Source: Candidatus Poribacteria bacterium (lineage in GTDB: Bacteria; Poribacteria; WGA-4E; WGA-3G). Taken from it: 64,000 nt of DNA. Under the pieces are notes generated by a model, which was not told where the DNA came from, searched no databases, and worked only from the letters and a program-made list of their open reading frames with translations. Shown piece after piece: positions 1-13,775 of this stretch. The position numbers were made by a program, and so were the translations under genes. Position 1 is the first letter of the stretch; each line of letters begins with the position of its first letter. The stretch is taken from NCBI GenBank assembly GCA_965262955.1, contig CBDHGE010000001.1, forward strand, positions 208,046 through 272,045. Direction: 5' to 3'.

Positions 1-440
1 TGTTTGGAAACGAGTGTATAGGTGCCGCTGAGTGTTTGCGCAACCCTGTAGGATTTTGAATAGACGATGATTGATGCGGATTTGTGGACATCTTCCTCAC
101 CTCCATCCCGGACGTAGAGATAAACGGTCACGGCGACCGGCGGGACGACTTCTTCAGGTGGGAGTTCAGGCGCAGTCCACTGAACTGCGGGTCCTGCTTC
201 CCCAATCAAAGTGCCGTCGGATACATCCCACGTATACGTCAAAGGATCGTTTTCAGGATCAAAAACTCTGGATTTAAATTCAACGGTTTCACCGTATTCA
301 ACCTCACTGGGGACAGTGAAACTGGTTATTTTAGGTGGGTCATTAGTGAGTTTCCTATATTCGTCACAACCGCTGAATATAGCGATTTGGAAAACCACCA
401 AAATGATTACACCTATTTGCGTTAACTTAAAGGAATACAT
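1..440 (-). CDS. Partial lipoprotein running off the window start. The N-terminal domain is paralogous to the thioredoxin-domain lipoprotein at 5641..6972.
   Basis: Nucleotides 1-440 align at about 80% with 6536-6972. The minus-strand translation from the ATG at 440 is MYSFKLTQIGVIILVVFQIAIFSGCDEY, a signal peptide plus lipobox. The frame stays open to the window edge. It is absent from the ORF track because it is edge-truncated. Confidence 0.55.
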   Translation of the reverse strand, partial: MYSFKLTQIGVIILVVFQIAIFSGCDEYRKLTNDPPKITSFTVPSEVEYGETVEFKSRVFDPENDPLTYTWDVSDGTLIGEAGPAVQWTAPELPPEEVVPPVAVTVYLYVRDGGEEDVHKSASIIVYSKSYRVAQTLSGTYTLVSK

Positions 441-544
441 AAAACATGCTCCATGTTAGTTAATGGCAGTAATGTAGGTTCTGCCGTATGAATTGCTTAC
501 TATAGGAACTCAAGTTGGTTCCTAAAAAGTTGTAGGTGTTCACA

Positions 545-660
545 CACAATATTGTCTGAATGCACATCGCATGAATCAACGCCGAATGCGCGTGTGGCAT
601 TCGTCGGGGTCTTTACGCCGCAAACCAGGATTTACAGGATTTTTAAGATTTTCAGGATAA
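545..660 (-). promoter_or_regulatory. Conserved upstream motif (TTCAGACAA plus ATCCTGnAAAT direct repeats) before the lipoprotein paralog. Copy 1 carries an inserted hairpin.
   Basis: The motif is shared with 7015-7055 and 9820-9850, both upstream of cassette genes. In this copy the direct repeats lie at 625-660 and TTCAGACAA at 548-556. The two parts are separated by an imperfect inverted repeat, cgccgaatgc..gcattcgtcgg. Confidence 0.3.
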
Positions 661-681
661 CAGCCCCTCTCTGGTTGAAAT

Positions 682-702
682 GGGTAGGCACAAGGCCTAC
701 CC
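682..702 (-). terminator. Conserved hairpin GGGTAGGC-acaag-GCCTACCC, 18 nt downstream of the WD40-metzincin gene stop. It has no T-tract, so its terminator or RNA-processing role is uncertain.
   Basis: A perfect 8-bp stem. The same hairpin and flanks, ggttgaaatgggtagg..caag..cctacccctacagtag, recur at 7071-7091 after the second WD40 gene. Confidence 0.35.
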
Positions 703-719
703 CTACAGTAGAAGAAATA

Positions 720-3700
720 TTACTTGCGTATCAACATCTTCCGTGTTGCGGTGTAATCGCCTGCGGTTAAGGTATAGAAGTAAATTCCGCTTGCAACGGG
801 TTCACCGAATTCATTCCTGCCATCCCAATATACCGCACGACTCCTACCTCGATACATGCCAGCAGCTTGATGTCCTAACGACAAATAACGCACTAAACGA
901 CCGTCTATCCCATAGATATGTACCGTCACATCTGCAGGATTTGACAACTGATACGGGATCCATGTTTCTGGATTGAACGGGTTTGGATAGTTCGGCAATA
1001 GGGTTGTATCTTCTGGAACCTGCACTGCGGAGAGATGTATCGCTGGAGCTGCTTGGACAGCACCAGTCGTACTCCGAAAATACTCGTAGTCAACTACTAA
1101 GGTGCCTGTTTGTGCGGCTACACCGGCATAAATCCCCAACTGTAACGGTGGAGTCAATGGAAAATGCGTAACGCCAATCTCTATCCAAGGCTCTGCCGCA
1201 CGGGTTTTATACCATCCGGTGTAGGCATCCCCGTCTTTGCGGAGGCGGAAAAATAGTTCGGTATCTCCATGCGTCGGCGTGAACCCCGCATTACCTGTTA
1301 AACCGTCTCCATGTTCACGTCCTCTGGTTTGATACTGAATTCGTCCCTTTGCACCCGGACCTTGAGACCAAAACTTTAGGGTTACCCAGTTATTGTCCGT
1401 GGGACTTTTCACAACAAGTCCATTAACTCCTGCAGTGGTATCCCATCTGGCAAAAAAGTGGGTTTCTACATCAAATGTATCGGCATCTGTCTCCTGATAT
1501 AGGAAATGAGAGGTATCCGATGTCCACTGGTTCCGGTTGGTCTCACCCTCGATATGTAGGAAATTACTTCGAGTTTCTCCGACATCCCAATTCGCTGGTT
1601 CATTTTGCCACTGCCAATTGGGGTTTTGCAGTGCTGTTCCTTCAAAGGAATCGTCAAAGTTGTCGGATATTCGCGTCGTGGCTATCGGTGTAACAGAGGC
1701 ATCCGCACCCATCGCTCGCTTGATTTCGGATACGTCCAGAGCAACGTTCCAGATAGCGACCTCATCAATCAGACCGATGTAGTGTTCCCGATTCCCTTCA
1801 CTATTTCTTCCGATAGAGAGTGGCACGTCGTTGGTATCAATTCGACCCGTTGCCGCGGTTTCTACTTTAAGTTCACCGTTATAGTACAGTTTCATCCGAT
1901 TGCCATCGTAGGTTGCAGTTAGGTGTGTCCACTGATTTAGTGGCAGTTGCGGACTGGGTCCGTTCCCACAACGTACTTCTCGTCCGCCATCAACTGACAT
2001 AATGAAACCTGTTTTTCCGTTGGAACCACCTTGCTGATAGAGTCCATAAACCATCCAAGGTGCAGTATCCCCCGCCCACGTTTTGACGATAATACGAAGC
2101 CACTCATGTGTAAATCGTGTCGGGTGCACCCACGCCATCAATGTAATTTCATCGGTGATGTCCAGAGAGGGTGAGTCTGGCACCTCCACCCAGCTGCCGC
2201 GTTGTCCAGTTAGTTCGATGGCTTCCCCGTTCTTCCCTTGTACCCATCGTGCGTTATGAACAATTCCGTTATTGCTGTGCTTGGAGGCATCTGTGGCGGT
2301 CGTTCCGACCCCGGCGTCAAATGGAAGATAAAGCACCAAATCATCAGCGTGGATAGTTCCGATAACCGAATCGGTTTCTATGGTCTCTGTGACACGCACG
2401 TCTTCGACCTGTACTGTGATATGTCGCACAACGCGCGATGTGCCGTCGCTTGCTGTTATCGCTACCGTCGAATTACCGACGCCTCTTGGCACGATTGCTA
2501 TCTGGGTTCCCAACGTGCGGACAGTCACCACGCCTGTGTTCGTTGATTCAACCTCATAACTCAAAACATCGTTGTCGGGATCGTTGAAATAAGATGACAT
2601 GTTCAGCATCATAGTACTACCGACGGTCAAAGTTTGGGCAGGGATTGTGCCAATTGCAACTGGAGACCGGTTTGATGTGTCTTCTATCGTCAACGGAAAC
2701 GTCTGTTTTGTAATGTTTCCACTCACATCAATAACCTGAAGCGTTATCTCGCTATCAACCCCAACTGTTAAGTCGGTTGTGACGAATTCAACCGTCTGCC
2801 TTTTGCCATTCAGGGATTTGCAACTATGCAACTTTAAGCCTGAGGCAGGATCGGTAGCTGCTACCGGGACAAGCAGCTGTGCCTGACGGAGGCCATCTGC
2901 ATCGTTCAGTTCAAACTGGAGACGAAGAGTCCGCGGGTTTGAGGCATTCGAGGCACGCATAGCAATCGTCGCGTTTTCATTGAAAAAGATTGGATCGTTA
3001 TTGAAGAAACGATGGGCATCCAACCATTCGGTGGCACAGTGCGACAAACGTTGCTGGGTGCCGTATCCCATCAGATAGGCATTGTCCCGGAAATCGTGCT
3101 CTAATCCAAAGACGTGTCCGAGTTCATGAGCAGTAATACTGGGGTTAATGCATACACCAGAGGCTGGGATGACTGCTAACCCGCCAAAATCTCGCCGCCA
3201 ATTCTCGTTATCAGACGAATTCCAACCGCCACCGCCTATCCCACAGGTATTTTCGTTATTAATAAATTCGCTACTCACATCTATTGCGACTAAAAAGACG
3301 TTTTTTGACGTATCAAACTGCTCAGCGATCTCATTCAGTACTTTGTTGTAGGTATCCTGATGATAGTATGTATCCGTGAACTTTCCGGTAACATGGTGGA
3401 CTTGTGCGTAACCGGTAGGCTCGGTTTCAAAGGCAAAGGTTTTTCGGTTGCCAATGCCTTGCATCTGTTCTGCGTAGAAGTACTGTGTCCATCTTATCAA
3501 TGTGTCTAATTCCTTCTCGATCCCTTGTCGGTGTGAACGATCGCTTGGGCGGAAGTAGACTAAGCGAACCATTTCTCGTTCATACTGTTGGATGGCTGTA
3601 TCATCTTCGGTCTGCGATATGGGTGTATTCTGTTTGGGCTTTTGGCTGTCTGTTTCCCGTTGCAAACGTTGCGTGGCGATGGGTGTAACATCCCACAAGA

Positions 3701-5603
3701 GGACGGTGCCATCGGGACTCCCAGTAGCGAGTGTGGTACCATCTGGACTAAAGGCGAGACTTTCAATCCAGTGCGCATGTCCATAGAGGACTTTGAATCG
3801 TTCCCCTGTGGCAACATCCCAAAAGAGTATCTCGGCTCCATTTCCGCCGGTTACGAGCATAGTGCCATCGGGACTGAAACTAACACCAGAATAATAGCAG
3901 GATCTTGAGATTGGAAGTGCGGCTTTGCGTTGCCCAGTCGCGACATCCCACAGCACGACCTTGGCATCATTATATCGCTCCCCCGGAGTCTCCACAGCGA
4001 GCGTTTTGCCATCCGGACTAAAAGTGATCCCAACACCACCTTTGATATGCCCACCGAGGGTATGGAGGAGTCGTCCGGTACCAACATCCCACACCCGAAC
4101 GGTGTCGTCATTATAACCACCACTTGCAAGTATGCTACCATTGGGACTGAAACTGACGCTCTGGACATGGGCAGTATGTCCTCTGAGGGTGGCTTTATGT
4201 GCGCCAGACCTTGCGTCCCACAAGCGTACAGTGGAATCCCCACCGCCACCGGCAATTGTCCTGCCGTCCGGAGAATAGGCAACGCACCAGACCCACTCCG
4301 TATGTCCAGTAAGTGTTACCTTTTGCCGCCCTGTGCGAACATCCCACAGATGGACTACTTTTTGAGTTGCAACCGCCAGTGTAAGTCCATCAGGAGAATA
4401 CGCGAGCGTGTCGCCCCAATTAGACCTCGTGGGCGGTGAGGGTTTAAGTTGTTCTGTAGCAATATCCCACAACTGGACACCGCTGTCAGCTCCAATTGCC
4501 AACGTGCCACCATCGGGAGAATATACAACCCTAACGACTTCTTTCGTATAACCTTTAATCGTAGATGTAATTTGACCTGTGCGAACATCCCAGAAGTGTA
4601 TCGTTCCACTCCGACTTACCCCAGCGAGTGTACGACCATCCCGTTGAAACATGAGGGAGCCAACACTGAAGGCATACCCGGCAGTGGCTTGGATTTCCCC
4701 CGCTGTAGCACTTTCAAATGTAGCTTTGACTTGTCCTGTGGTAGCATCCCAGACTCGAATTTTTCCATCCCAATGGCTGCTTACGAATATGGTACCATCT
4801 GGACTGAAGCTGGTGCTCTCGCCCCACCAATGCTCTGTAAGTGTGGATCTGAATCGCCCTGTGCCAGCATCCCATAGTATTATTTTTCCATCCCAACCTC
4901 CAGATGCGAGGGTTCTGCCATCCGGACTAAAGCTGACGCTACCGATCATTTTGGTATGCCCCGTTAGGTTCGCTATGAGTCTACCAGATCCTACATCCCA
5001 CAACCGCACAGTGGTGTCTCCACTCCCACTTGCGAGGGTCCTACCATCCGGACTGAACGCAATACCGGTGATGTCACTTGTGTGCCCTTGCAAAGTTCTG
5101 AGGATCTTACCGGTGCGGGTGTCCCACAACCTTATAGCGTTGTCAGCATACCCAGCACAAGCGAGTATACGACCATCGGGCGAATACCGAATGCTCTGAA
5201 TATCAGCATAACGGTTTTCAATAGGCGGTACACTAAGTATGTCTCTGGACTGCCACGTGGCAGTATCCCAGAGATGCACGTCGTGAACACTCCCACTTGC
5301 GAGTGTTCGACCATCGGGAGAATAAGCAACACTCCGAAATCTACGCGGTTTAGACGGATCTGGGGTGAGCCATTCAAGTACTGCTTCCGTTTGTGCATCG
5401 TATACCCAAACCCCAACGGAACTGGCTACTGCAAGTTGCGTCTCATCTGGAGAATATGTCAGTTCTCTTATGATACCTTTTCCGAAGCGAGCAATTGCAC
5501 CTTCAGGTAAATTCCATTGCGTGTAACTTTGTGCGAAGCTGTTTGGCACAACAGCAAGTGCTATCAACACGACAGCCAAAATCGAAAATAGTGTGATTTT
5601 CAT
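720..5603 (-). CDS. Giant secreted multidomain protein of 1627 aa. It has a signal peptide, about 14 WD40 repeats (two beta-propellers), a matrixin-like zinc metalloprotease (HELGHVFGLEH), a cadherin-like Ig domain, LamG/ConA-like lectin domains, and a T9SS type-A C-terminal sorting domain.
   Basis: The N-terminal signal peptide is MKITLFSILAVVLIALAVVPNSFAQ. WD40 motifs such as LASGSGDTTVRLWD recur. The metzincin motif HExxHxxGxxH is encoded around 3085-3125. The C-terminus, NYPNPFNPETWIPYQL...GIYFYTLTAGDYTATRKMLIRK, matches the Por-secretion tail. Confidence 0.85.
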   Translation of the reverse strand: MKITLFSILAVVLIALAVVPNSFAQSYTQWNLPEGAIARFGKGIIRELTYSPDETQLAVASSVGVWVYDAQTEAVLEWLTPDPSKPRRFRSVAYSPDGRTLASGSVHDVHLWDTATWQSRDILSVPPIENRYADIQSIRYSPDGRILACAGYADNAIRLWDTRTGKILRTLQGHTSDITGIAFSPDGRTLASGSGDTTVRLWDVGSGRLIANLTGHTKMIGSVSFSPDGRTLASGGWDGKIILWDAGTGRFRSTLTEHWWGESTSFSPDGTIFVSSHWDGKIRVWDATTGQVKATFESATAGEIQATAGYAFSVGSLMFQRDGRTLAGVSRSGTIHFWDVRTGQITSTIKGYTKEVVRVVYSPDGGTLAIGADSGVQLWDIATEQLKPSPPTRSNWGDTLAYSPDGLTLAVATQKVVHLWDVRTGRQKVTLTGHTEWVWCVAYSPDGRTIAGGGGDSTVRLWDARSGAHKATLRGHTAHVQSVSFSPNGSILASGGYNDDTVRVWDVGTGRLLHTLGGHIKGGVGITFSPDGKTLAVETPGERYNDAKVVLWDVATGQRKAALPISRSCYYSGVSFSPDGTMLVTGGNGAEILFWDVATGERFKVLYGHAHWIESLAFSPDGTTLATGSPDGTVLLWDVTPIATQRLQRETDSQKPKQNTPISQTEDDTAIQQYEREMVRLVYFRPSDRSHRQGIEKELDTLIRWTQYFYAEQMQGIGNRKTFAFETEPTGYAQVHHVTGKFTDTYYHQDTYNKVLNEIAEQFDTSKNVFLVAIDVSSEFINNENTCGIGGGGWNSSDNENWRRDFGGLAVIPASGVCINPSITAHELGHVFGLEHDFRDNAYLMGYGTQQRLSHCATEWLDAHRFFNNDPIFFNENATIAMRASNASNPRTLRLQFELNDADGLRQAQLLVPVAATDPASGLKLHSCKSLNGKRQTVEFVTTDLTVGVDSEITLQVIDVSGNITKQTFPLTIEDTSNRSPVAIGTIPAQTLTVGSTMMLNMSSYFNDPDNDVLSYEVESTNTGVVTVRTLGTQIAIVPRGVGNSTVAITASDGTSRVVRHITVQVEDVRVTETIETDSVIGTIHADDLVLYLPFDAGVGTTATDASKHSNNGIVHNARWVQGKNGEAIELTGQRGSWVEVPDSPSLDITDEITLMAWVHPTRFTHEWLRIIVKTWAGDTAPWMVYGLYQQGGSNGKTGFIMSVDGGREVRCGNGPSPQLPLNQWTHLTATYDGNRMKLYYNGELKVETAATGRIDTNDVPLSIGRNSEGNREHYIGLIDEVAIWNVALDVSEIKRAMGADASVTPIATTRISDNFDDSFEGTALQNPNWQWQNEPANWDVGETRSNFLHIEGETNRNQWTSDTSHFLYQETDADTFDVETHFFARWDTTAGVNGLVVKSPTDNNWVTLKFWSQGPGAKGRIQYQTRGREHGDGLTGNAGFTPTHGDTELFFRLRKDGDAYTGWYKTRAAEPWIEIGVTHFPLTPPLQLGIYAGVAAQTGTLVVDYEYFRSTTGAVQAAPAIHLSAVQVPEDTTLLPNYPNPFNPETWIPYQLSNPADVTVHIYGIDGRLVRYLSLGHQAAGMYRGRSRAVYWDGRNEFGEPVASGIYFYTLTAGDYTATRKMLIRK

Positions 5604-5640
5604 TGGGAATCTCCTTCTTTAGCACGTGTCCCGTCAAAAT

Positions 5641-6972
5641 CTACTTTAGTGCATCTAAGATCTTCTCTGCAAAAACCGTTTTAGGCATTACCCCAACCAT
5701 TTTTCCGACCACTTTGCCATCTTGGAAGATAATATACGTTGGAATCCCATTGACTTTATATTCTCCGGGCGTCCGCGGGTTTGCATCAATATCCAATCGT
5801 CCAACGATGAAAGTATTACGGTGTTCCAATGCGACTGTCTCAACGACTGGCATCATTTGTCGGCAGAAGGGACACCAATCGGCAGCAAATTCAAGCACAA
5901 CGGGTGCCTTAGCATCCAGCACCTCGGTTTTGAATGTAGCATCGGTAATCTCAACAATTTTCCCATCAGCATTAATCAGTACTGGATCCACATCTTCTTC
6001 GGGAACTACATCAACGGGTTCGGGAACTACATCATCAACAATCTCAATCGGTTCATCAGCAACAGGTTCGGGAACTACATCATCAACGACTTCAATCGGA
6101 TCATCAGCAATCGGTTCAGGGACCACATCGTCAACGACTTCAATCGGATCATCAGCAATCGGTTCAGGGTCAATACCGTCATCAACAGGGACGGGATCGG
6201 TGTTGACCGGTTCAGGAGCAATATCTTTCGGATCATCGACTGTAATATCTCCAGTATCCTCTCCTATGATGCTGTAAACGTACCGCGTAGCAGTGGCTCG
6301 CATAAAGAGGACCAAGAGTCTACCGTCCCAAGTATATGTCCCCGTCAAAGGCGTAGGATTGCCATCAACAAACCAGTGAATCGTTCCTGTACTCTGGTCA
6401 AAAGGTGCAACAAGTTTATAGGTGCCCGAGCTATATTGAACTGGACCTTGGGCTTCGTCTTGGAATTCCCGTGTAAACGTTGAAATCGTGAGTCGCAGGA
6501 CGCCGGTTTCTTCAACGGGGTCTCCATGAACCTGCTTGGAAACGAGTTCATAGGTGCCGCTGAGTACTTGCGCAATCCGGTATGGTTTTGAAAAAATGAT
6601 AACTGATGCCGATTTGTGGACCTCTTCCTCGCCGCCATCCTGCACGGAAACGGAAACGGCTACCGTCGTTGGAGGCACAATTTCCTCAGGTGGAAGTTCT
6701 GGAGCAGTCCATTGAACTTCAGGTCCTGTGTCAACAATCAAAGTGCCTTTGGATACATCCCATACATAGGTTAAAGTATCATCTTCAGGATCAAATGCCC
6801 TCGCTTTAAATCTGACGGTTTCACCGTATGGGACTTCACCGGGGACAGTGAAACTGGTTATTTTAGGTGGGTCATTGGTGAGTTCATCATATTGGTCACA
6901 ACCGCTTAAGATGGCGATTTGGAGAGCTAACACAATGACCAAGCTGATCTGAGTTAGTTTAGAAAAATGCAC
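5641..6972 (-). CDS. Lipoprotein with an N-terminal Ig/FN3-like domain, an acidic 16-aa tandem-repeat linker and a C-terminal thioredoxin domain (WCPFC). It ends 37 bp upstream of the WD40-metzincin gene, so the two are probably co-transcribed.
   Basis: The signal and lipobox are ILSGC. Repeats of PEPIADDPIEVVDDVV occur about 3.5 times. The thioredoxin CxxC motif is WCPFCRQMMPV. Confidence 0.8.
   Translation of the reverse strand: MHFSKLTQISLVIVLALQIAILSGCDQYDELTNDPPKITSFTVPGEVPYGETVRFKARAFDPEDDTLTYVWDVSKGTLIVDTGPEVQWTAPELPPEEIVPPTTVAVSVSVQDGGEEEVHKSASVIIFSKPYRIAQVLSGTYELVSKQVHGDPVEETGVLRLTISTFTREFQDEAQGPVQYSSGTYKLVAPFDQSTGTIHWFVDGNPTPLTGTYTWDGRLLVLFMRATATRYVYSIIGEDTGDITVDDPKDIAPEPVNTDPVPVDDGIDPEPIADDPIEVVDDVVPEPIADDPIEVVDDVVPEPVADEPIEIVDDVVPEPVDVVPEEDVDPVLINADGKIVEITDATFKTEVLDAKAPVVLEFAADWCPFCRQMMPVVETVALEHRNTFIVGRLDIDANPRTPGEYKVNGIPTYIIFQDGKVVGKMVGVMPKTVFAEKILDALK
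5995..6180. repeat. Tandem repeat of 48 bp, about 3.5 near-identical copies, encoding the acidic PEPIADDPIEVVDDVV linker of the Trx lipoprotein.
   Basis: Repeated units of ggaactacatcatcaacgacttcaatcggatcatcagcaatcggttcagg are directly visible. Confidence 0.7.
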
Positions 6973-7014
6973 AAGATATCTCCTTGTAGACCACTACAAA
7001 TCTGTTGTCTGAAC

Positions 7015-7055
7015 CAAGATTTTCAGGATTTTTATAATTTTCAGGATTATTGACA
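7015..7055 (-). promoter_or_regulatory. Conserved ATCCTGAAAAT direct repeats (18-bp period) plus TTCAGACAA, 35-80 bp upstream of the Trx-lipoprotein start.
   Basis: The minus-strand reading is AATCCTGAAAATtataaaaATCCTGAAAATcttggTTCAGACAAcag. It is shared with 625-660 and 9820-9850. Confidence 0.35.
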
Positions 7056-7070
7056 CTTTCCGGTTGAAAT

Positions 7071-7091
7071 GGGTAGGTACAAGACCTACCC
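7071..7091 (-). terminator. Second copy of the conserved GGGTAGGT-acaag-ACCTACCC hairpin, downstream of the WD40-dockerin gene.
   Basis: Same structure and flanks as 682-702. Confidence 0.35.
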
Positions 7092-7108
7092 CTACAGTAG
7101 AAAAGATA

Positions 7109-9781
7109 TTATTTGCGTATCAGCATTTTACGCGTCGCAGTGAAATCGCCTGCGGTTAAGGTATAGAAATACACGCCGCTTGCGACGGATTCACCTACTG
7201 CGTTTTTGCCATCCCAATATGCCGCACGGCTACGGGATTGGTAGATGCCTACTGCTTTATGCCCTAATGACAACGTTCTGACCAAACTCCCACCTACCGC
7301 ATAGATACGCAGGGTCACATCTGCGGGAGTTGCCAACTGATACGGAATCCACGTCTCTGGATTGAACGGGTTCGGGTAGTTTGCTAACAACGCTGTCTCT
7401 TTTGGAGTTAATGTCAACAGCAGCTGCTCAAGGAAGCGGATACCGCGTTGAGAGATTGCATCGGTAAGATTAAGTTGCTGTGCTTGTGTTAACCACTGCT
7501 GCACGGTCTCTGGAGAGAGTCGAGAGAGATTCGCTACAGCAGCTGGTGCACTGGCAGCCGTTTCTCCGAATGCCGCAGCCACGGAAACAAGGTCCCGAAT
7601 GTCAACTGTGCCATCACCATTGATGTCAGCAGGCGTTTCGCCTGTTTCGCCAAATGCCGCTGCTACGGAGACGAGATCGCGTATGTCAACCGTTCCATCA
7701 CCCGTGACATCGGCTGCGAGGCGAGGCGGTTCGGGTTCGACTTCTGGTTCCGGTTCGGGTTCCGGTTCTGGAGCGAGGTCCCACAGCAGCACGGTGGAAT
7801 CTTCACTACCACTCGCCAATGTCCTACCATCTGGACTGAACGAGACACTCTCAACATACGAGGTATGCCCAGTGAACTGGGATTGCAGCGTCCCAGTAGC
7901 AACATCCCACAGCCGGACCGTGCCGTCAACACTTCCACTGGCAAGGGTAGCTCCATCTGGACTGAACGACACACTCTCAACTTCATCTGTATGCCCAGTG
8001 AGTTCGGATTGCAGCGTCCCTGTCCCTATATTCCACAAACGCACCGTGGTGTCCCAACCCCCACTCGCAAGCATCTGACTACTCGGATTGAACGATACAC
8101 TCCGGACAGGCAAAGTATGTCCCATGAGTTCGGATTTCAGTGTTTCTGTCCCAACGTCCCATATACGCACCGTGGTGTCCCGACCCCCACTCGCAAGCAT
8201 TGAACCATCGGGACTGAACAATACAGTTTTGACCCAATGCGTATGTCCTGTGAGTTCGGCTTTCAACGTCCCAGTTCCTACATCCCACAAACGTACTGTT
8301 CCGTCACTACTACCACTGGCAAGGGTAGCTCCATTTGGACTGAACGATACACTATGAACACCTTCCGTATGCCCCTCGAGCGTAGTTTTCAGCGCACCAC
8401 TCCCGACATCCCATAAACGAATGGTCCGGTCTGCACTTCCACTGGCAAGGGTAGTTCCATTCGGACTGAACGATACACTCTCGACCCAGAGCGTATGTCC
8501 TGTGAGTATAGTGCTGACCGCCCCTGTGCCAACACTCCATAAACGCACAGTATTGTCATAACTCCCGCTCGCAAGTGAGGTGCCTTTCGGACCGAATGAT
8601 ACACTCGCGACACCACCTATATGCCCGGTGAATGTGGTTTTGAGGTCCCCCGTCTCAACATCCCACCAACGTACCGTATTGTCATAACTCCAACTCGCAA
8701 GCGTTTGACCATCCGGGCTGAACGACACATTCAAGACCTCGCGCGTATGTTCGGTGAACGTGGTTTTGAGGTCCCCCGTCCCAACGTTCCACAAACGCAC
8801 CGTGGTGTCACTACTACCACTCGCTAACGTCATACTATCTGGACTGAACGATACACTCTCGATCAAGGACGTATGCCCCATAAGCTCAAATTTTAACGTG
8901 CCAGTCGCAACATTCCATAAACGTACTGATCCCTCTGAACTCCCACTAGCGAGGGTCGTGCCATCTGGACTGAACGACACACTAAAGACATGATCGGTAT
9001 GCCCTGTGAGTTCGGATTTCAGTGTTCCAGTCCCTACATCCCATAAATGCACTAGTCCGCGTAAACTCCCACTAGCGAGGGTCGTGCCATCTGGACTGAA
9101 CGACACACTCTTGACCCCAATCGCACCCCCTGTGAGTTCAGATTTCAGCGTCCCTGTCCCTACATCCCATAAATGCACCGAGCCACTACCACCCATACAG
9201 GCAAGCGTCGTGCCATCTGGACTGAATGACACACTCTTGATACCACCCCAATGCTTTTCGAGCTCGGATTTTAGCGTCCCTGTCCCTACATCCCATAAAC
9301 GCACCGTAGGGTCGGATAGCCCGCTACTCGCAAGCGTTTGACCATCTGGACTGAACGATACACTCGAAATCTGATGCGTATGTCCAGTAAGCGTCGCTTT
9401 CGGCACAGCCGTCATAACGTCCCACAAACGCACCGTCGTGTCCTCATTCCCACTCGCTAACGTCATGCCATCCGGACTAAACGACACACTCTTGACCGAG
9501 TTTGTATGCTCTGTGAGGAGTGCGAGTTCTTGGTATGTCTCGGTATCATAAAGCCATATACCGATGCTACTTCCTACCGCAAGCAGTGAACCGTCTGAAG
9601 AATATGTTACCGCATTTATACTACCTTTACCGAATCGCGCTTTGGCTCCTTCGGGTAAACCCAATTGCGTATACTCCTGATATTGTCCGAAGGTACTTGG
9701 TAGATACACTGTTGAAAATAAAATGAACGCCAAAATTATTGAAAATAATCTCGTTTTCATCGGAAGTTTACCTCTTTTCAA
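7109..9781 (-). CDS. Secreted WD40 beta-propeller protein of 890 aa, with about 14 repeats, a Pro-Glu linker, duplicated dockerin type-I repeats and a T9SS type-A C-terminal sorting domain.
   Basis: A signal peptide is present and LASGS.D.TVRLWDV repeats recur. The linker is PEPEPEPEPEVEPEPP. The dockerin repeats read DVTGDGTVDIRDLV twice. The C-terminus is NYPNPFNPETWIPYQL...GVYFYTLTAGDFTATRKMLIRK. The likely true start is M8, with AGAGG 9 nt upstream, at about 9760. Confidence 0.85.
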   Translation of the reverse strand: MKRGKLPMKTRLFSIILAFILFSTVYLPSTFGQYQEYTQLGLPEGAKARFGKGSINAVTYSSDGSLLAVGSSIGIWLYDTETYQELALLTEHTNSVKSVSFSPDGMTLASGNEDTTVRLWDVMTAVPKATLTGHTHQISSVSFSPDGQTLASSGLSDPTVRLWDVGTGTLKSELEKHWGGIKSVSFSPDGTTLACMGGSGSVHLWDVGTGTLKSELTGGAIGVKSVSFSPDGTTLASGSLRGLVHLWDVGTGTLKSELTGHTDHVFSVSFSPDGTTLASGSSEGSVRLWNVATGTLKFELMGHTSLIESVSFSPDSMTLASGSSDTTVRLWNVGTGDLKTTFTEHTREVLNVSFSPDGQTLASWSYDNTVRWWDVETGDLKTTFTGHIGGVASVSFGPKGTSLASGSYDNTVRLWSVGTGAVSTILTGHTLWVESVSFSPNGTTLASGSADRTIRLWDVGSGALKTTLEGHTEGVHSVSFSPNGATLASGSSDGTVRLWDVGTGTLKAELTGHTHWVKTVLFSPDGSMLASGGRDTTVRIWDVGTETLKSELMGHTLPVRSVSFNPSSQMLASGGWDTTVRLWNIGTGTLQSELTGHTDEVESVSFSPDGATLASGSVDGTVRLWDVATGTLQSQFTGHTSYVESVSFSPDGRTLASGSEDSTVLLWDLAPEPEPEPEPEVEPEPPRLAADVTGDGTVDIRDLVSVAAAFGETGETPADINGDGTVDIRDLVSVAAAFGETAASAPAAVANLSRLSPETVQQWLTQAQQLNLTDAISQRGIRFLEQLLLTLTPKETALLANYPNPFNPETWIPYQLATPADVTLRIYAVGGSLVRTLSLGHKAVGIYQSRSRAAYWDGKNAVGESVASGVYFYTLTAGDFTATRKMLIRK

Positions 9782-9819
9782 AGATTGAAGGTGGCTCTTA
9801 CATCAGGGATTTATTATCA

Positions 9820-9850
9820 GTTGTCTGAATCAGGATTTGCAGGATTAGAG
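9820..9850 (-). promoter_or_regulatory. Third copy of the ATCCTGnAAAT direct repeat plus TTCAGACAA motif, 40-70 bp upstream of the WD40-dockerin gene.
   Basis: The minus-strand reading is ATCCTGCAAATCCTGATTCAGACAACTG. Confidence 0.35.
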
Positions 9851-9886
9851 CGAACGCGTTTGTACAATTGCTGCACAGATGAAGCA

Positions 9887-12388
9887 TTAGGGTTCAGGCG
9901 ACTCTTTAGAATCACCCTCTAATTCCTCGATCCAACGCATAATCGTTTCGTAACTTTCAGTATCGTTTCGCTTCTGCAATTGATCGGCAAGTTGATTACC
10001 CGTCTCAACCAGTAACTCTCGCAATTCTGGTGTATAGGGTTCCGACTTTAACGCCAGTCGGTACTTCTCCATCGCATTCTTGGGCTGTCTGCGGTTCAGC
10101 AAACATCGGGCGAGGGCACACTGCACGCGAGCCAATTTCTCCGCAGTCGGGTCGGGCGTGTCTGGTATAGCATCAACGGTTGAAGCAGCCTCGTCAGTAC
10201 CGGGTTCTGACGAGGCTGCCGCTCTCGCTTTACTCAACGCAACATCAAGTTGCGATTCAAGCGAGAGCAGATTTTGATATGCAACAGTATTCCTCGGATG
10301 TTTAGAGAGGACGTTATCAAAAGTCGCCAAAGCTTTCAAATGATCATTCTGGACGAGATAGAGATAACCAATCATGTTGAGCATATCTACAGTTTTTTCA
10401 GATGCCGGAATCGCCTCAAAGACAACGACCGCTTCTGCATATCTCTTCTGATTCATCAAGGCATTTCCACGCCGGATTTGGAGGTTCAGGAGTTCTGTTT
10501 TTGCGTTTTTATGATTCGGATCTTGTGCTAAAATTCGCTCTAATTCCTCTCTTGCCTGATCATATTTGCCGAGACGTTGGTATACCTGCGATAAGGTCAG
10601 ACAGAGATTAAGGTCGGTTGGAAAGAGGTCTAATGCTTTCTGAAGCTGCACGGCTGCATTGCTATAATCTCTTCTATCTCTCAAGCCTTGCGCATATTGC
10701 AGATAGGCAGCGATGAGGTTATGCTGTGCCTGTTTGTCGGTGGGGAGTACTGTGTAAACTTTATGAAACGCCGAGATCGCTGCGGGATAATCTCGCACTT
10801 TGAGATATAATTCTCCAAGCAAACTCGCTATATCCGTATCATCTGGATGCAGTTTCTGTAATTCAAGATACGTGGCAATTGCACTGGTGGAACGTCCCGA
10901 TTGTCGATGTGCGTTTGCTTTTTGCCAAAGCACATCAATCAGGTTTGTTTTGGCGAGTTGATAGGTAGGTTGTAATCTTAAAGCGTTGCGATAGGCGCGA
11001 ATCGACGCATCCCATTCGCCGTTATTCCTGAGTGCCACGCCATGGTTATTATAGGCGTGTACGAGGTTCTTCTCCGTCACTTTATCGCCGGGTTCAATTT
11101 CTAACGCCTTTTGGTAATATGTAATCGCTGTAGAAAACTGAGAGACGTGGGCGTACCCGTCCGCCATGTGTCGATAGGTAGTAGCGTTCTGTGGGTCGAG
11201 ATGGATGGCTTTTTCAAAGTATGCGGTCGCCTCGTCAAAAGCCCTCATCTTTACAGCGTCAAATGCTTTTTGGCGAAAGAGCTGGTGGAGGTTTCGTTTT
11301 GCGGTTTTGTGATGCGGTGAGCGTTCAAGGGCTTTCTCAAACGCCTCTATCGCTTTGTTCAGATCGCCTTCTCGGTAATAGAGCGTGCCGAGGTAATTAT
11401 AGGAGTCGGCACTCTCATGGAAAGAGCGATGCCCTTGCTGGGTTTCCATTCTTTGTTCAACGATACGAATAGCTTGTTGTGACTGTCCAGTCTTTTGGTA
11501 GGCCTGAATCAGTTTCACCCTTGCGGGTTCAAAATTGGAATCAACGCCGAGACAGTTCTGAAAATTGGCGATTGCCTGTGTCATGTCGCCTTTGTCAAAG
11601 CAGACTGCACCAAGCAGGTAGTGCGGGCGGGCATGTCTTGGATTCGTTTGAATTTCCTTTTTTAGAAGTTCGATAGCAACGGCGTGCTGTGATGTATGGA
11701 GCGGTGTATTGTAAAGTTTCAATAATGTATTGATATCGCGAGCAGTTGGATACTGGGCGGTTGCCGTGGTGTGACAGACATCAAGGTCGTCTGGGCTGTG
11801 TCCCCACAAACCGATCGCATGCCCAAGTTCATGCAGGCACACTGTCCGCATCTCTTCTTGGGTCAGTTCACCGACGGTTCCATCTCCCTCTAACACAAAG
11901 AGAACCTCCACTGTGAAATCAATCGCTGTCCCTGAAACTTGTCCGGTGTTGGTACGCTGTCCTTGGACATCAGTACCAGAGACAGTGGATGTGCCTTGTT
12001 CAAGTCGCGTTAATTCGGCACTACCGAGTCGTGTATCAAGAAAACTCAGGCGACCACTGTAGGTTGGGGTAATGCGGATGTCTGCCTGCTCCAAGACTTC
12101 AGTCTCTTGAAAACGGACTTTGCCATTGGAAGCAGTTTCCCAAGTGCGCATGGCGTATCGTATTTCAGGGAGATAGGGGAGTGCTTTGAGGGTAGGTGAA
12201 ATGTGGACATGAATCGGCATCTGCGTAAAGCGCGTGATTCTGCCACCCGAAAACAGCGTAACCTGTTCAAAATAATCTGTCGAAGAGGTTGTCTCCGTCG
12301 CATTCTCAACAGGGTCCTGTGCTGTTACCTGTCCTATGAAACCGACAACTGTCAGTGTAAAGACGAAAAGGGTATAGTATTTTTTCAT
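9887..12388 (-). CDS. Secreted matrixin-like zinc metalloprotease (HELGHAIGLWGHS) fused to a long array of TPR repeats, 833 aa.
   Basis: A signal peptide is present. The HExxHxxGxxH motif sits about 200 aa in. More than 12 TPR-like 34-aa repeats follow, of the type AYxxLGxxYxxxGxxxxAIxxxxxAL. Confidence 0.8.
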   Translation of the reverse strand: MKKYYTLFVFTLTVVGFIGQVTAQDPVENATETTSSTDYFEQVTLFSGGRITRFTQMPIHVHISPTLKALPYLPEIRYAMRTWETASNGKVRFQETEVLEQADIRITPTYSGRLSFLDTRLGSAELTRLEQGTSTVSGTDVQGQRTNTGQVSGTAIDFTVEVLFVLEGDGTVGELTQEEMRTVCLHELGHAIGLWGHSPDDLDVCHTTATAQYPTARDINTLLKLYNTPLHTSQHAVAIELLKKEIQTNPRHARPHYLLGAVCFDKGDMTQAIANFQNCLGVDSNFEPARVKLIQAYQKTGQSQQAIRIVEQRMETQQGHRSFHESADSYNYLGTLYYREGDLNKAIEAFEKALERSPHHKTAKRNLHQLFRQKAFDAVKMRAFDEATAYFEKAIHLDPQNATTYRHMADGYAHVSQFSTAITYYQKALEIEPGDKVTEKNLVHAYNNHGVALRNNGEWDASIRAYRNALRLQPTYQLAKTNLIDVLWQKANAHRQSGRSTSAIATYLELQKLHPDDTDIASLLGELYLKVRDYPAAISAFHKVYTVLPTDKQAQHNLIAAYLQYAQGLRDRRDYSNAAVQLQKALDLFPTDLNLCLTLSQVYQRLGKYDQAREELERILAQDPNHKNAKTELLNLQIRRGNALMNQKRYAEAVVVFEAIPASEKTVDMLNMIGYLYLVQNDHLKALATFDNVLSKHPRNTVAYQNLLSLESQLDVALSKARAAASSEPGTDEAASTVDAIPDTPDPTAEKLARVQCALARCLLNRRQPKNAMEKYRLALKSEPYTPELRELLVETGNQLADQLQKRNDTESYETIMRWIEELEGDSKESPEP

Positions 12389-12705
12389 TTTTGCCTATAG
12401 TTAGAAACACATATTCGCACAGTCCGAGATTTTAGACAATCCTCGAGGGTGAGAGAACTCCCTCGTAAAATTTCTGTAACGAAAACCGGTGCGAATCTAT
12501 AATTCATTCAACTCATTATTATATATACAGAGCAAAAAGCGTGCCAGATGTAAATCGAGCGACGGAACGTTCAAAACGGTTATAGGCGGTAATGAAAAAA
12601 GAAATATACTTATAAAATAAGAAGGAAAATGAATACGGTAACACTATAAGAAAGAATTTTTCCATAGTATACCGAGAAAACACGAGAAAAAAAAAGAATG
12701 GAATA

Positions 12706-12753
12706 GTGCAAAAATTGTATAGTGCAAAAATTGTATAGTGCAAAAATTGTCCA
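12706..12753. repeat. Three perfect tandem copies of a 16-bp unit (ATAGTGCAAAAATTGT) in a 575-bp AT-rich region upstream of the metzincin-TPR gene.
   Basis: atagtgcaaaaattgt occurs three times, followed by a purine-rich A-tract region. Confidence 0.8.
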
Positions 12754-12964
12754 ATTATACAATTAATGTCTGTATTCAATTATAATACAACACATATATA
12801 GATTACGGAAGTTTAATTTACAATTCAGGGAAACTAACAGAATTGGCTTTTGGCTACAACTTAGGCAGGAAATAATCAGTCAACGCTTTGGATTCGTGGC
12901 TGAGATTTTGGAAGGTTCAAACAGTGAAAGGCAGGCGTTCTCCGGTTCAGAAATGTTTATCGGT

Positions 12965-13417
12965 TTAAATACCAAACGTTTTTTCCAGATTGTCTCTGAG
13001 TCGAGTTATAATTATCGCCTCTAATTGTTCAAGAGACTGTGTACTATCCACATCCACCAGTGCATCCACAAGTTGTAAGAGCTCTTCCTGCTCGGCTACG
13101 TCGCAGGCTCTAAGTGTGCCCACAATTTCACTGATCTGCGGTAAGACATAAGCTTTGAAATCGGGTGGTGCGTATTGGAGTTCTTCCATAATTATGTCCA
13201 TCTCCTCAACGGCATTTTTTAACTGCGATTCCAACGCCTCGAGTGCTTTTTGTTGCCTATTGATGGAATTGACTTGCAGGTTAACTGGCACTACGGTGTT
13301 GTGGACAGCAGCCTCCCTTGCTTCCAGAACCCTACTTTCCAAATCAACTAAGGCTCTGAATTTCTCTACGATTATGTCTGCCAGTTCCGTTGTCTGTCCA
13401 GTTTCTTTCTCAGTCAT
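12965..13417 (-). CDS. Small acidic, probably all-helical protein of about 150 aa, of unknown family. It is paralog A of 15286..15717.
   Basis: It shares about 50% identity with the protein at 15286..15717. The most conserved block is AYVLPQ[IM]SEI[VI]GTL[RK]ACD..LE[QE]LEAIITRL[RK]DNLE. The likely start is the ATG (M7) at 13417, with GGAGA 11 nt upstream. The track start is a GTG at 13435. Confidence 0.65.
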   Translation of the reverse strand: MTEKETGQTTELADIIVEKFRALVDLESRVLEAREAAVHNTVVPVNLQVNSINRQQKALEALESQLKNAVEEMDIIMEELQYAPPDFKAYVLPQISEIVGTLRACDVAEQEELLQLVDALVDVDSTQSLEQLEAIIITRLRDNLEKTFGI

Positions 13418-13631
13418 TCGTTCACTTTTCTCCACGGATTTAATTTGGCTTATAAGTCAATTATCGCTTATAGTCATATTAAGGCGTTACTACGTTTTTA
13501 CAATCATTTCAATATATCACATTTTATACGTTCTTTTCAAGATGCAACAATACCTTACTTAAACTTAAATTATAATAAAAGATAGATATGAATTTCTAAG
13601 TATCTTCCATAAAAGGCTAATATCTATACTT

Positions 13632-13647
13632 AAGCAAAAATCATGCC
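13632..13647 (-). promoter_or_regulatory. Near-consensus sigma-54 (-24/-12) promoter, TGGCATGATTTTTGCT, directed at small-protein paralog A.
   Basis: It matches TGGCAC-N5-TTGCW with exact GG-N10-GC spacing. It lies about 185 nt upstream of the ATG and is divergent from the sensorless sigma-54 activator gene. Confidence 0.5.
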
Positions 13648-13661
13648 ACTTTTGAAGTGGC
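13643..13661. promoter_or_regulatory. Perfect palindrome TGCCACTT-ttg-AAGTGGCA overlapping the -24 element. Its right arm supplies the TGGCA of a weaker plus-strand GG-N10-GC element (TGGCAaacgcgacGCA) pointing toward the activator gene.
   Basis: The 8-bp perfect inverted arms are directly visible. It could be an operator or back-to-back -24 elements. Confidence 0.4.
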
Positions 13662-13685
13662 AAACGCGACGCATACTTTTTGGAC

Positions 13686-13775
13686 GTCTGAACTTCTTCG
13701 GGACCACGATTGTTCCCTCAAACAAGACGGACATCCAGATGCAAATTATTGGAAAACTGAAGGTCCTAATTATCT
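13686..13775 (+). repeat. Intergenic repeat element, copy A, of about 90 bp. It is about 80% identical to 56836-56930.
   Basis: It shares gaactt[cg]ttcgggac...gttccc...catccagatg[ct]aaattattgga[at]aactgaa with copy B. Confidence 0.6.

Follow-up and report, generated by a model that had tools for sequence, protein, structure and literature searches.

The 64,000-nt stretch of DNA analysed here (the window) begins with genes for large exported proteins beside a lipoprotein that carries a thioredoxin domain, which raises the question of whether each exported protein has a redox partner of its own. The sequence-only reading had seen two lipoprotein-plus-cargo units in positions 1-9860, as a tandemly repeated cassette in which a motif precedes a thioredoxin lipoprotein, a WD40 T9SS cargo and a hairpin, with ATCCTG/TTCAGACAA as a shared regulatory site and a separate thioredoxin for each cargo. 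The gene content already contradicts this, and we regard such a tandem cassette as very unlikely. On the minus strand, the M10-like/TPR gene is followed by the WD40-dockerin gene, the thioredoxin lipoprotein gene, the WD40-metzincin gene and the start of a second lipoprotein gene, both WD40 genes ending in a C-terminal domain (CTD) (Table 1). Positions 1-9860 thus hold one complete thioredoxin lipoprotein, not two, and the dockerin protein follows the 833-aa M10-like/TPR gene with no lipoprotein upstream, so that the pairing of each cargo with a thioredoxin did not hold. The duplication stands in a looser form: in relatives, a gene of beta-helix/YWTD/dockerin/CTD make-up comes after that of the second lipoprotein, and the order of lipoprotein and then cargo recurs, but not as identical cassettes.

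Table 1. Features at the left end of the window, in order of position
Feature	Position	Strand	Description
Second lipoprotein paralogue (lipo2), 5' part (146 codons)	1..440	-	From translation; leaves the window at its left end
ATCCTG repeats of 9-nt period (624-658) and TTCAGACAA (552-560)	552..658	-	Split by a ~51-nt insertion lacking in the other copy (alignment)
GTAG + hairpin GTAGGGGTAGGCCTTGTGCCTACCC	682..706	-	8-bp stem, 5-nt loop; begins 14 nt past the 1627-aa stop codon
1627-aa exported protein	720..5603	-	Signal peptide, ~14 WD40 blades, reprolysin-like metzincin, beta domain, Ig-like domain, Laminin_G_3, second ConA-like domain, T9SS type-A-like CTD
443-aa lipoprotein (lipoTrx1)	5641..6972	-	Lipobox LSGC then Asp, Ig-like domain, 8-stranded beta domain, acidic tether, TrxA-type thioredoxin
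Two ATCCTGAAAAT repeats, then GGTTCAGACAA	7005..7047	-	End 33 nt before the lipoprotein GTG
Second GTAG + hairpin GTAGGGGTAGGTCTTGTACCTACCC	7071..7095	-	Begins 14 nt past the 890-aa stop codon
890-aa exported protein	7109..9781	-	Signal peptide, 14 WD40 repeats, PE-rich linker, dockerin, T9SS type-A-like CTD
ATCCTGCAAATCCTGATTCAGACAA	9821..9845	-	Upstream of the 890-aa gene; no adjoining hairpin
833-aa exported protein	9887..12388	-	M10-like domain (HELGHAIGLWGH) and many TPR repeats; conserved island head gene
Sigma-54-type promoter TGGCACGCTTTTTGCT	12531..12546	-	12/12 consensus positions; ~143 nt upstream of the 833-aa gene
Three tandem 17-mers (CAATTTTTGCACTATA)	12701-12750		Upstream of the 833-aa gene
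156-aa conserved small protein	12965..13435	-	No known family
Sigma-54-type promoter TGGCATGATTTTTGCT	13633-13648	-	Promoter of the 156-aa gene
386-aa sigma-54 activator	14059..15219	+	AAA+ domain and weak HTH, without N-terminal sensor domain (PspF-like layout)

The locus was compared with 17 related Poribacteria loci by tblastn and ORF maps. Positions 1-12.4 kb belong to a gene island that is conserved among Candidatus Poribacteria (sponge symbionts), the host group, and synteny extends over the 17 related loci. The stable core comprises the M10/TPR protein, the thioredoxin lipoprotein, the WD40-metzincin protein and the second lipoprotein; cargo genes alternate with these two paralogous lipoproteins (Ig-like domain plus family-restricted beta domain) and multiply in some lineages and disappear from others, the additional WD40-CTD genes numbering 0 to 4. 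The cargo products are predicted to be Sec-exported "eukaryote-like" proteins, each starting with a signal peptide and ending in a T9SS type-A-like CTD, with a WD40 double propeller and variable modules in between. Although protein sequences differ between the loci by as much as ~50% and other island genes come and go, the thioredoxin lipoprotein gene lies directly upstream of the WD40-metzincin gene in 15 of the 17 (one is cut by a contig end), so that the pairing of thioredoxin lipoprotein and CTD cargo is co-conserved at this junction. The two genes are 37 nt apart in the window, 38 nt in loci L020 and L021 and ~10-80 nt elsewhere, with no repeats between them; the remaining island junctions measure 115-450 nt and contain repeats. 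Judged from this arrangement, the two genes probably form one transcription unit.

Proteases are typical T9SS type-A cargo in the Bacteroidota/FCB group, e.g. the gingipains of Porphyromonas gingivalis. The island cargo resembles these in its N-terminal Sec signal, its ~90-residue C-terminal beta-sandwich above the TIGR04183 cut-off and its final KMLIRK-type strand, but differs in bearing WD40 double propellers. TIGR04183 scores 34.8 bits in the 1627-aa protein and 30.9 bits (cut-off 23) in the 890-aa protein, in agreement with the double propeller and Por-secretion domain that had been proposed, and the dockerin expected on one cargo was found in the 890-aa protein (PF00404, duplicated-loop, 31.7 bits, cut-off 22.9). 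The real start of the latter gene is probably the ATG at 9760, after a GAGG ribosome-binding site, and the protein collection held no identical 890-aa sequence. No PorU, PorV or SprA gene was found in the 64-kb window or the related loci, and to our knowledge T9SS machinery has not been reported from Poribacteria. WD40 proteins carrying a Por C-terminal domain have already been published from this phylum (Kamke et al., 2014, PLoS One 9:e87353; PMC3909097), and the same paper reports finding no Por/T9SS structural genes in its partial single-cell genomes. These proteins belong to the same class (WD40, signal peptide and TIGR04183); the passages devoted to them give domain counts and are silent on the island and its sigma-54 head, on lipoproteins as partners, on the fusion to a metzincin and on dockerin or cohesin modules, and the term thioredoxin does not occur in the searchable text of that paper (PMC3909097).

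The protease of the 1627-aa protein had been called matrixin-like. The metzincin and the LamG module (Laminin_G_3, 97 bits) are real, but Reprolysin_3 lies above its cut-off (24.4 versus 22.4 bits) whereas Peptidase_M10 falls below (16.2 versus 24), and the supposed cadherin module scores as Big_9, which at 22.3 bits is borderline, just below the cut-off of 23.6. The metzincin site, HELGHVFGLEHD, is intact. It is invariant in 15/15 orthologues (HELGHVFGL(E/Q)HD, AYLM(A/G)YG), as are four cysteines of the domain, and these features together make a dedicated redox or folding partner for the protease alone plausible. WD40-only cargo contains 0-2 cysteines, often none, and therefore cannot need disulfide chemistry, which also speaks against a thioredoxin for every cargo.

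The candidate partner is the 443-aa lipoprotein, whose gene starts with GTG. As the sequence-only reading had described, it combines a signal peptide and lipobox (LSGC) with an Ig-like domain (PKD-like, weak), acidic P/E-rich repeats and a C-terminal thioredoxin (PF00085, 82.6 bits, active site WCPFC). The best PDB relatives of the latter are TrxA (E down to 5e-29), which places it with the TrxA-type rather than the TlpA/ResA-type. WCPFC is retained in 53/55 homologues, the first active-site cysteine being absent in the other two (WDPFC, WSPFC), and the GIPT motif keeps its Pro without exception. The acidic, P/E-rich tether (residues 239-328, ~90 residues) is disordered (pLDDT <50) and differs in length among homologues. 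All homologues with a source name or a titled genome contig came from Poribacteria (120 clusters among the matches listed), and the complete two-domain N-terminal part was found in only ~10 of 1.84 billion representatives.

We consider it moderately probable that the locus is a conserved island with sigma-54 input at its head and repeats that are not cassette-specific, in which the thioredoxin lipoprotein serves as redox partner of the metzincin only. After Sec export the lipoprotein would stay lipid-anchored, the Asp at +2 suggesting the inner membrane by the E. coli rule, which may not hold here. The four cysteines of the metzincin would then be the substrate of the tethered WCPFC domain, which might form, isomerise or reduce disulfides there; export or display of the folded protease via its CTD would follow, and the other cargo proteins would make no use of the thioredoxin.

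Lipid-anchored extracytoplasmic thiol-disulfide oxidoreductases are represented by DsbA1/DsbA2 of Neisseria meningitidis and ResA/StoA of Bacillus. Like these, the island lipoprotein would present a membrane-held CxxC thioredoxin fold to exported proteins on the periplasmic or extracytoplasmic side, but its domain is TrxA-type and C-terminal, after an Ig-like domain, a beta domain and a tether, and its gene is coupled to that of one protease only. It is quite unlikely that the protein is a general envelope oxidoreductase (ResA/TlpA/DsbE- or lipoprotein DsbA-like) that neighbours the metzincin by inherited synteny, with no functional coupling. Its occurrence once per genome (genome scan) and a weak NCBIfam similarity to ResA, DsbE and TlpA would fit such a role, and in loci L003 and L007 the lipoprotein persists in the absence of the orthologous cargo, so the thioredoxin need not be strictly cargo-dedicated. 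However, the domain class disagrees with it, as does an adjacency with a very short gap that has outlasted the divergence of the loci.

The second lipoprotein bears on a further explanation. A paralogue had been expected at the left end, and the fragment there does contain a lipobox (FSGC, then Asp) and a PKD-like Ig domain (PKD_4, 28.1 bits) and is 72% identical to the 443-aa protein, but its orthologues in relatives (239-242 aa) lack a thioredoxin domain. The N-terminal parts of lipo1 and lipo2 share 60-72% identity with the thioredoxin on one only, and this common Ig and beta part points to a thioredoxin-independent function. The lipoproteins could be envelope anchors or receptors whose Ig and beta part putatively binds the cognate CTD protein, with the thioredoxin as an accessory, an explanation that we consider conceivable but unlikely. 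In this island, CTD cargo genes across Poribacteria are preceded by three kinds of lipoprotein: one with a tethered thioredoxin, one with the Ig and beta part alone, and one whose P/E tether carries a cohesin (PF00963, 52.5 bits). The supposed binding is likened to that of the last kind, which would bind dockerin-bearing cargo; the two homologues without the nucleophilic cysteine also fit an accessory thioredoxin. Nevertheless, Foldseek returned no informative structural relative of the beta domain (TM <=0.37), the active site is otherwise strongly conserved, and a selenocysteine version of a tethered thioredoxin lipoprotein in the same island argues for true redox catalysis. Cohesin-dockerin (cellulosome-type) assemblies are paralleled by the dockerin of the 890-aa protein together with the cohesin proteins, one a lipoprotein, that relatives encode in the same island; the differences are that the 64-kb window contains no cohesin and that the modules are WD40, beta-helix, YWTD and metzincin, not glycoside hydrolases.

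The motif, the hairpin and the paralogous genes from which the tandem cassette was drawn are real and statistically non-random. The hairpin and the ATCCTG block each appear twice because the junction from CTD through intergenic DNA to lipoprotein 5' end exists in two paralogous copies (83% nucleotide identity). The hairpins (2 in the window, 0.01 expected) are not identical, as had been claimed: stems GGGTAGGC..GCCTACCC and GGGTAGGT..ACCTACCC differ by a compensated change at the 8th pair. Five GTAGG-headed perfect hairpins lie on the coding strand of the 64-kb window, 14 nt (706, 7095) or 18 nt (30759) past a stop codon, just beyond an ORF end (44238) or deeper in the intergenic region of 30759 (30610), and three of the five adjoin unrelated genes. 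Counting both strands, GTAG + hairpin sites number 6 versus 1.5 in shuffles. The island hairpin is thus a member of a REP-like class of GTAGG-hairpin 3' elements that has other members in the window as well. REP/BIME elements of Enterobacteria and Pseudomonas are GTAG-headed hairpins recognised by RAYT transposases. The likeness lies in GTAG(G) directly before a GC-rich perfect hairpin, the 3' intergenic position on the coding strand and several different copies per window (counted within 64 kb), but the L021 copies have GTAT, not GTAG.

ATCCTGNAAAT occurs five times, always on the minus strand within 630-9845 (0.22 expected), and TTCAGACAA five times in the window (0.84 expected), three of them within 1-9860. 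Phased ATCCTG repeats were present in 58 of 120 metagenome stretches bearing the 15-base core, where an estimated ~3.5 would be expected by chance. Stretches with the ATCCTG/TTCAGACAA block are intergenic, range from 28 to 56% GC and are not consistently oriented relative to the genes beside them, which identifies the block as a member of an interspersed repeat family found across contigs of widely differing base composition. More distant Poribacteria have other repeats at the same junctions and no ATCCTG module. The proposed regulatory motif and conserved hairpin are therefore over-represented, but as general intergenic repeats and not as cassette-specific regulators. In the window, L020 and L021, the ~105-nt intergenic module always points toward the island gene downstream of it, whose start codon is 31-46 nt away where the copy is uninterrupted, and is conserved at least as well as flanking coding DNA (six copies, three genomes). 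Given this conservation and constant orientation, the module may have a local promoter or RNA function.

The recognisable regulatory input appears to lie at the head of the island, where sigma-54 promoters adjoin a PspF-like activator gene that is divergent from the island. Sigma54_activat matches the 386-aa activator with 218 bits from residue 14, and NCBIfam PspF with 240 bits, under the cut-off of 443. The layout resembles PspF-PspA regulation in that an activator with only AAA+ and HTH domains diverges from a small-protein gene with a sigma-54 promoter, but differs in this PspF score and in the small proteins, which match no Pfam family, PspA included. The promoter of the 833-aa gene is also present in L020 and L008, and the 833-aa protein (Peptidase_M10, 25.8 bits, cut-off 24) is 69-74% identical in 14 loci and 93% identical in L020.

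On the minus strand, the cargo and lipoprotein genes follow the order cargo, hairpin, motif, lipoprotein, cargo, hairpin, motif, lipoprotein, the motif being a block of ATCCTG repeats and TTCAGACAA in intergenic DNA and the hairpin a stem-loop headed by GTAG(G) 3' of the cargo genes. The first cargo gene is itself preceded by a third copy of the motif, here without the hairpin. The sequence-only reading split this order into two units, pairing a thioredoxin lipoprotein with a WD40 cargo gene in each, and took the DNA motifs for regulatory signals. The observation was partly confirmed and its interpretation partly supported: the genes and a conserved island stood, and the DNA motifs had been over-interpreted. 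The division into two like units did not stand, as there is a single complete lipoprotein (443 aa) and the gene upstream of the 890-aa cargo gene encodes an M10/TPR protein.

The proteins of the window were mapped onto 17 related loci: 15 from genomes, and the two close metagenome contigs L020 (lipoprotein 84% identical to the 443-aa protein) and L021 (81%). The conserved order of the island that emerges from these 17 loci begins with the M10/TPR gene, followed by 0 to 4 WD40 genes with a type-A-like C-terminal domain (CTD, TIGR04183), the thioredoxin lipoprotein, the WD40-metzincin-CTD gene and a second lipoprotein. Homologues of the 443-aa protein formed 120 clusters among the matches listed, at 40-84% identity except for one weak match and with one locus per genome; those with a source name or a titled genome contig all come from Candidatus Poribacteria. 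The region is a real, conserved and lineage-specific gene island. For the DNA left of the window start, the content is predicted from the relatives alone, in which the second lipoprotein has 239-242 aa and no thioredoxin domain; in several of them it is followed by a protein of about 1100 aa with a beta-helix, a YWTD propeller, a dockerin and a CTD. The 833-aa protein joins an M10-like domain, whose zinc motif HELGHAIGLWGH (HExxHxxGxxxH) exceeds the metzincin consensus by one residue, to some 600 residues of TPR repeats.

Features of the window, with the corresponding features of related loci (positions in related loci are preceded by the locus)
Feature	Position	Strand	Remark
Further lipoprotein gene, first 146 codons	1-440	-	start at 440; 72% identical paralogue of the 443-aa protein
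WD40-metzincin-CTD gene, 1627 aa	720-5603	-
Thioredoxin lipoprotein gene, 443 aa	5641-6972	-
WD40-dockerin-CTD gene, 890 aa	7109-9781	-
M10/TPR gene, 833 aa	9887-12388	-	signal peptide, M10-like domain, many TPR repeats
Sigma-54 promoter match, 12/12 positions	12531-12546		about 143 nt upstream of the M10/TPR gene
Three tandem 17-mers (CAATTTTTGCACTATA)	12701-12750		four in L020
Small protein, 156 aa	12965-13435		paralogous pair flanking the activator
Sigma-54 promoter match, 11/12 positions	13633-13648		upstream of the 156-aa gene
PspF-like sigma-54 activator	14059-15219	+	AAA+ domain and weak HTH, no sensor domain
Small protein	15286-15765		second of the paralogous pair
GTAGG with perfect GC-rich hairpin, different stem	30588-30610	-	coding strand; deeper in the intergenic region of the site ending at 30759
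GTAGG with perfect GC-rich hairpin, different stem	30736-30759	-	coding strand; 18 nt past the stop of an unrelated gene
GTAGG with perfect GC-rich hairpin, different stem	44215-44238	-	coding strand; just past the end of an unrelated ORF
Metabolic rest of the window: two gamma-glutamyltranspeptidases, SBP56 selenium-binding protein, sulfatase, PSCyt2/PSD1 (DUF1549/DUF1553) protein, BCCT transporter	23777-25414 and 54759-56378; 45049-46437; 30777-32234; 19824-21476
ATCCTG repeats with TTCAGACAA	624-658, 7015-7047, 9831-9845		further members in metagenome repeat loci L024-L140
Candidate selenoprotein gene	L002 ~19650-20136, L003 ~12700-13217, L006 ~17300-17790, L007, L011, L013, L014, L015		corresponds to the left of the window start
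Cohesin domains	L002 1115-1792; L020 19184 onward; L021 16471-18477; L007 ~3915-4301

Within the island, the WD40-metzincin gene directly follows the thioredoxin lipoprotein in 15 of the 17 related loci (one of the 15 being cut by a contig end). The exceptions are L003, which keeps only a WD40 fragment at this place, and L007, which has other genes there. The gap between the two genes is repeat-free and short (37 nt in the window, 38 nt in L020 and L021, roughly 10-80 nt elsewhere); the remaining island junctions measure 115-450 nt and are full of repeats. The concern that lipoprotein and cargo show no co-conservation therefore falls away, for the thioredoxin-metzincin pair alone.

Both lipoproteins have a signal peptide ending in a lipobox that fits [LVI][ASTVI][GAS]C, namely LQIAILSGC-D (LSGC, then Asp) in the 443-aa protein and FQIAIFSGC-D in the second, and the lipobox cysteine is kept in at least 90% of 55 homologues. 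In the 443-aa protein, an Ig domain with weak similarity to PKD and a set of acidic P/E-rich repeats precede the C-terminal thioredoxin, which is of the TrxA type (PF00085, 82.6 bits at a cut-off of 23.5; best PDB E-values down to 5e-29). The active site reads WCPFC in 53 of the 55 homologues and WDPFC or WSPFC in the other two, and the proline of the GIPT motif, our criterion for the cis-proline, is invariant in all 55. In AlphaFold models built with 55-58 homologues, residues 36-127 form a confident Ig-like domain and residues 129-235 a helix followed by an eight-stranded beta domain; residues 239-328 form a disordered acidic tether (pLDDT <50) whose length varies among homologues, and the thioredoxin fold comes after it. 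A Foldseek search with the beta domain gave no informative PDB match. Of 1.84 billion representative proteins, only about 10 contain the two-domain N-terminal part; the remaining matches, roughly 1500, cover the Ig-like repeat alone.

Downstream of the relatives' second lipoprotein lies a gene that might be taken for a free cytoplasmic trxA; this was rejected, because its product is a lipoprotein and its active-site region contains an in-frame TGA. This candidate selenoprotein was seen in eight loci and is a lipoprotein of about 160 aa in which a short acidic linker leads to a thioredoxin; in all eight, the TGA is the first codon of the active site (W-U-G-F/A-C). A conserved SECIS-like hairpin, TGATGCA-GT-TGCATCA, lies about 28 nt downstream. 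Compared with the thioredoxin domain in the window lipoprotein, the candidate selenoprotein is 52-58% identical, and the junction 'DGKPI.VTDATF' is common to both. Given this resemblance and the shared junction, the window lipoprotein looks like a fusion of an N-terminal part of the second-lipoprotein type to a tethered thioredoxin in which selenocysteine has been replaced by cysteine.

The two cargo proteins start with Sec signal peptides, assigned by inspection (MKITLFSILAVVLIALAVVPNSFAQ and MKTRLFSIILAFILFSTVYLPSTFGQ), and both end in a CTD that passes the TIGR04183 cut-off of 23 (34.8 bits in the 1627-aa and 30.9 bits in the 890-aa protein); FlgD_ig also matches both CTDs, at 32-33 bits with a cut-off of 27. 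The 890-aa protein consists of 14 WD40 repeats, a PE-rich linker, a type I dockerin (PF00404, 31.7 bits, cut-off 22.9) with two Ca-binding loops, DVTGDGTVDIRDL and DINGDGTVDIRDL, and the CTD. The 1627-aa protein carries about 14 WD40 blades, a metzincin domain, an Ig-like module, Laminin_G_3 (97 bits), a second ConA-like domain and the CTD; the cadherin module formerly assigned to it was not recovered, the sole match being Big_9, a bacterial Ig family, at 22.3 bits against a cut-off of 23.6. Its zinc site HELGHVFGLEHD fits HExxHxxGxxH and is followed six residues on by AYLMGYG, a Met-turn by sequence position only. HELGHVFGL(E/Q)HD, AYLM(A/G)YG and four cysteines of the metzincin domain are invariant in 15/15 orthologues apart from the variants indicated, and the protease site proposed earlier is thus intact. 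The matrixin label has to be revised, since the domain scores 24.4 bits with Reprolysin_3 (cut-off 22.4) and only 16.2 bits with Peptidase_M10 (PF00413), below the gathering score of 24. Judged by these profiles, the protease is better described as M12/reprolysin-like, and one relative is named 'M12 family metallo-peptidase' by NCBI.

The sequence-only reading had paired a thioredoxin with each cargo protein. The WD40-only cargo proteins contain 0-2 cysteines, many of them none, whereas the metzincin domain has its four invariant cysteines; we therefore tie the thioredoxin to the protease only. As a lipid-anchored, tethered periplasmic thiol-disulfide oxidoreductase, the 443-aa protein would act on the protease domain before export, and we infer such a predicted role from the cysteine pattern. 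A serious rival is that the lipoproteins serve instead as an anchor or receptor for the cargo: the Ig and beta part is common to both lipoproteins, and a cohesin lipoprotein is present in relatives. One relative's cohesin belongs to a lipoprotein with a P/E-rich tether encoded just before the beta-helix/dockerin/CTD gene. Cohesin domains were found in the islands of four related loci and not in the window, and together with the dockerins they suggest that Poribacteria may build cohesin-dockerin surface assemblies.

Poribacteria are dominant, uncultured symbionts of sponges, and the 'eukaryote-like' proteins that they export are believed to mediate host contact. The exit route of Por-type CTD proteins has been a standing question since 2014: Kamke et al. 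(2014, PMC3909097) reported that poribacterial WD40 proteins often bear TIGR04183 and that they found no genes for the structural part of the Por system in poribacterial single-cell genomes, so that the secretion route was left open. This statement was the only one returned by our literature searches on T9SS or Por secretion in Poribacteria, and a broader search on the distribution of T9SS added nothing. No gene for the T9SS core (PorK/L/M/N, SprA, PorV, PorU) or another secretion system was detected among the window ORFs of at least 200 aa scanned to 56.4 kb, and those extra island genes of relatives that were scanned likewise yielded no T9SS component. A bolder scheme, to which we give little credence, is that Poribacteria handle CTD proteins by another route, with gene-paired lipoproteins as envelope receptors or anchors and a tethered thioredoxin (Cys here, Sec in relatives) that would use thiol chemistry to capture or release cargo. 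The receptors or anchors of such a route would be proteins with the Ig and family-restricted beta domains, with or without the tethered thioredoxin, and the cohesin lipoproteins. The locus offers a conserved and compact test case, with an active-looking protease cargo and its presumably dedicated tethered thioredoxin, recurring lipoprotein-cargo pairs, dockerins whose cohesin partners would be those in the islands of relatives, and a sigma-54/PspF-like control region. As far as our literature searches show, the conserved island, the architecture of the thioredoxin lipoprotein and its coupling to the metzincin, the lipoprotein-cargo pairs and the sigma-54 head are new, although none is categorically so; the combination of WD40 and TIGR04183 in Poribacteria was already described by Kamke et al. 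(PMC3909097).

The motifs and the hairpin are repeated non-randomly, as had been noticed. ATCCTGNAAAT occurs five times in the window, always on the minus strand at 630-9845 (0.22 expected), TTCAGACAA five times (0.84 expected), three of them inside the region originally singled out, and the hairpin twice (0.01 expected). The stretch running from the CTD-coding sequence through the intergenic DNA to the 5' end of the lipoprotein gene is paralogous, with 83% identity over about 870 aligned bases and insertions of about 51 and 78 nt in the left copy, and the repetition of motif and hairpin follows from the paralogy of this junction. The module has no GG-N10-GC match to a sigma-54 promoter (TGGCAC-N5-TTGCW, GG at -24 and GC at -12). 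No sigma-70 promoter or intrinsic terminator coincided with the module or the hairpin in a scan of positions 1-13500, in which the totals did not exceed the shuffle expectation, and the sole match to Rfam 15 at 1-13800 was HgcG at chance level (E = 0.53).

Metagenomes were scanned with a 15-base core, and phased ATCCTG repeats lie upstream of it in 58 of the 120 stretches among the matches listed, against an estimated 3.5 or so by chance. These 58 stretches have a GC content of 28-56%, are mostly intergenic and vary in orientation to the neighbouring genes; 13 of them carry an inverted copy (GTCTGAATCAGGAT) at most 160 nt upstream. Among the Poribacteria loci compared, the block is found in the window, L020 and L021 only, and distant poribacterial lineages have CAGTTNT-type heptamer repeats instead. 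As its metagenome copies span a wide GC range, are mostly intergenic and keep no fixed gene orientation, we conclude that the block belongs to an interspersed repeat family of wide occurrence, and that in one lineage this family colonised the junctions described here. The supposed cassette-specific regulatory signals are accordingly generic intergenic repeats, which corrects the over-reading. The block may still have a local function, because in six copies the conservation of the module of about 105 nt equals or exceeds that of the coding DNA beside it, and because it always points to the downstream island gene, with uninterrupted copies 31-46 nt from the start codon.

The family has the form (ATCCTGnAA)n-ATCCTG[A/G]TTCAGACAA, is sometimes palindromic (TTGTCTGAATCAGGATT...AATCCTGATTCAGACAA) and forms tandem arrays in four metagenome loci (L040, L085, L094, L123). 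In other cases it directly follows genes whose C-terminal coding sequence, we presume, resembles that of GxxExxY-family proteins. Our literature search found no name for the repeat and no paper quoting its sequence. In L001-L015, GCGAGTACGCAGTTGTCAG is conserved right after the stop codon of the CTD genes; next come tandem heptamers of three kinds (CAGTTNT, CCAGTTA, GTACTCA) together with inverted partners, which recall the STRR repeats of cyanobacteria. In L020 a small repeat of the CCCCCTGATAAGGGGGATTTAGGGGG type (~4290-4330) lies in the gap that separates the TPR gene from the first cargo gene; since it also adjoins ATCCTG blocks in the unrelated contigs L103 and L111, the pattern suggests that several small repeat families travel together.

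The two hairpins, at first taken to be identical, differ at two compensating positions: where one has C-G as its 8th pair, the other has U-A. At this pair the L020 copy reads U-G, and the three L021 copies are mismatched. The hairpin has no T-run, is followed by ATTTCAACC and was not recognized as an intrinsic terminator. Counting the unrelated sites in the table, the window holds five coding-strand copies of GTAG with a hairpin, and six over both strands compared with 1.5 in shuffles. In other Poribacteria GTAGG is followed by different hairpins at the equivalent junctions. By their layout, a GTAG head and a palindrome in 3' intergenic DNA, the hairpins of the window are candidate REP-type elements, a class that is also marked by many intergenic copies and an associated RAYT gene.

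Beyond the M10/TPR gene lies a putative sigma-54 control region. Both sigma-54 promoter matches are kept in L020 and L008 and partly in L005, and the tandem 17-mers look like a putative enhancer. The PspA label was withheld for the two small proteins beside the activator, as they match no family. The arrangement of the whole region is conserved in L020, L008 and L005.
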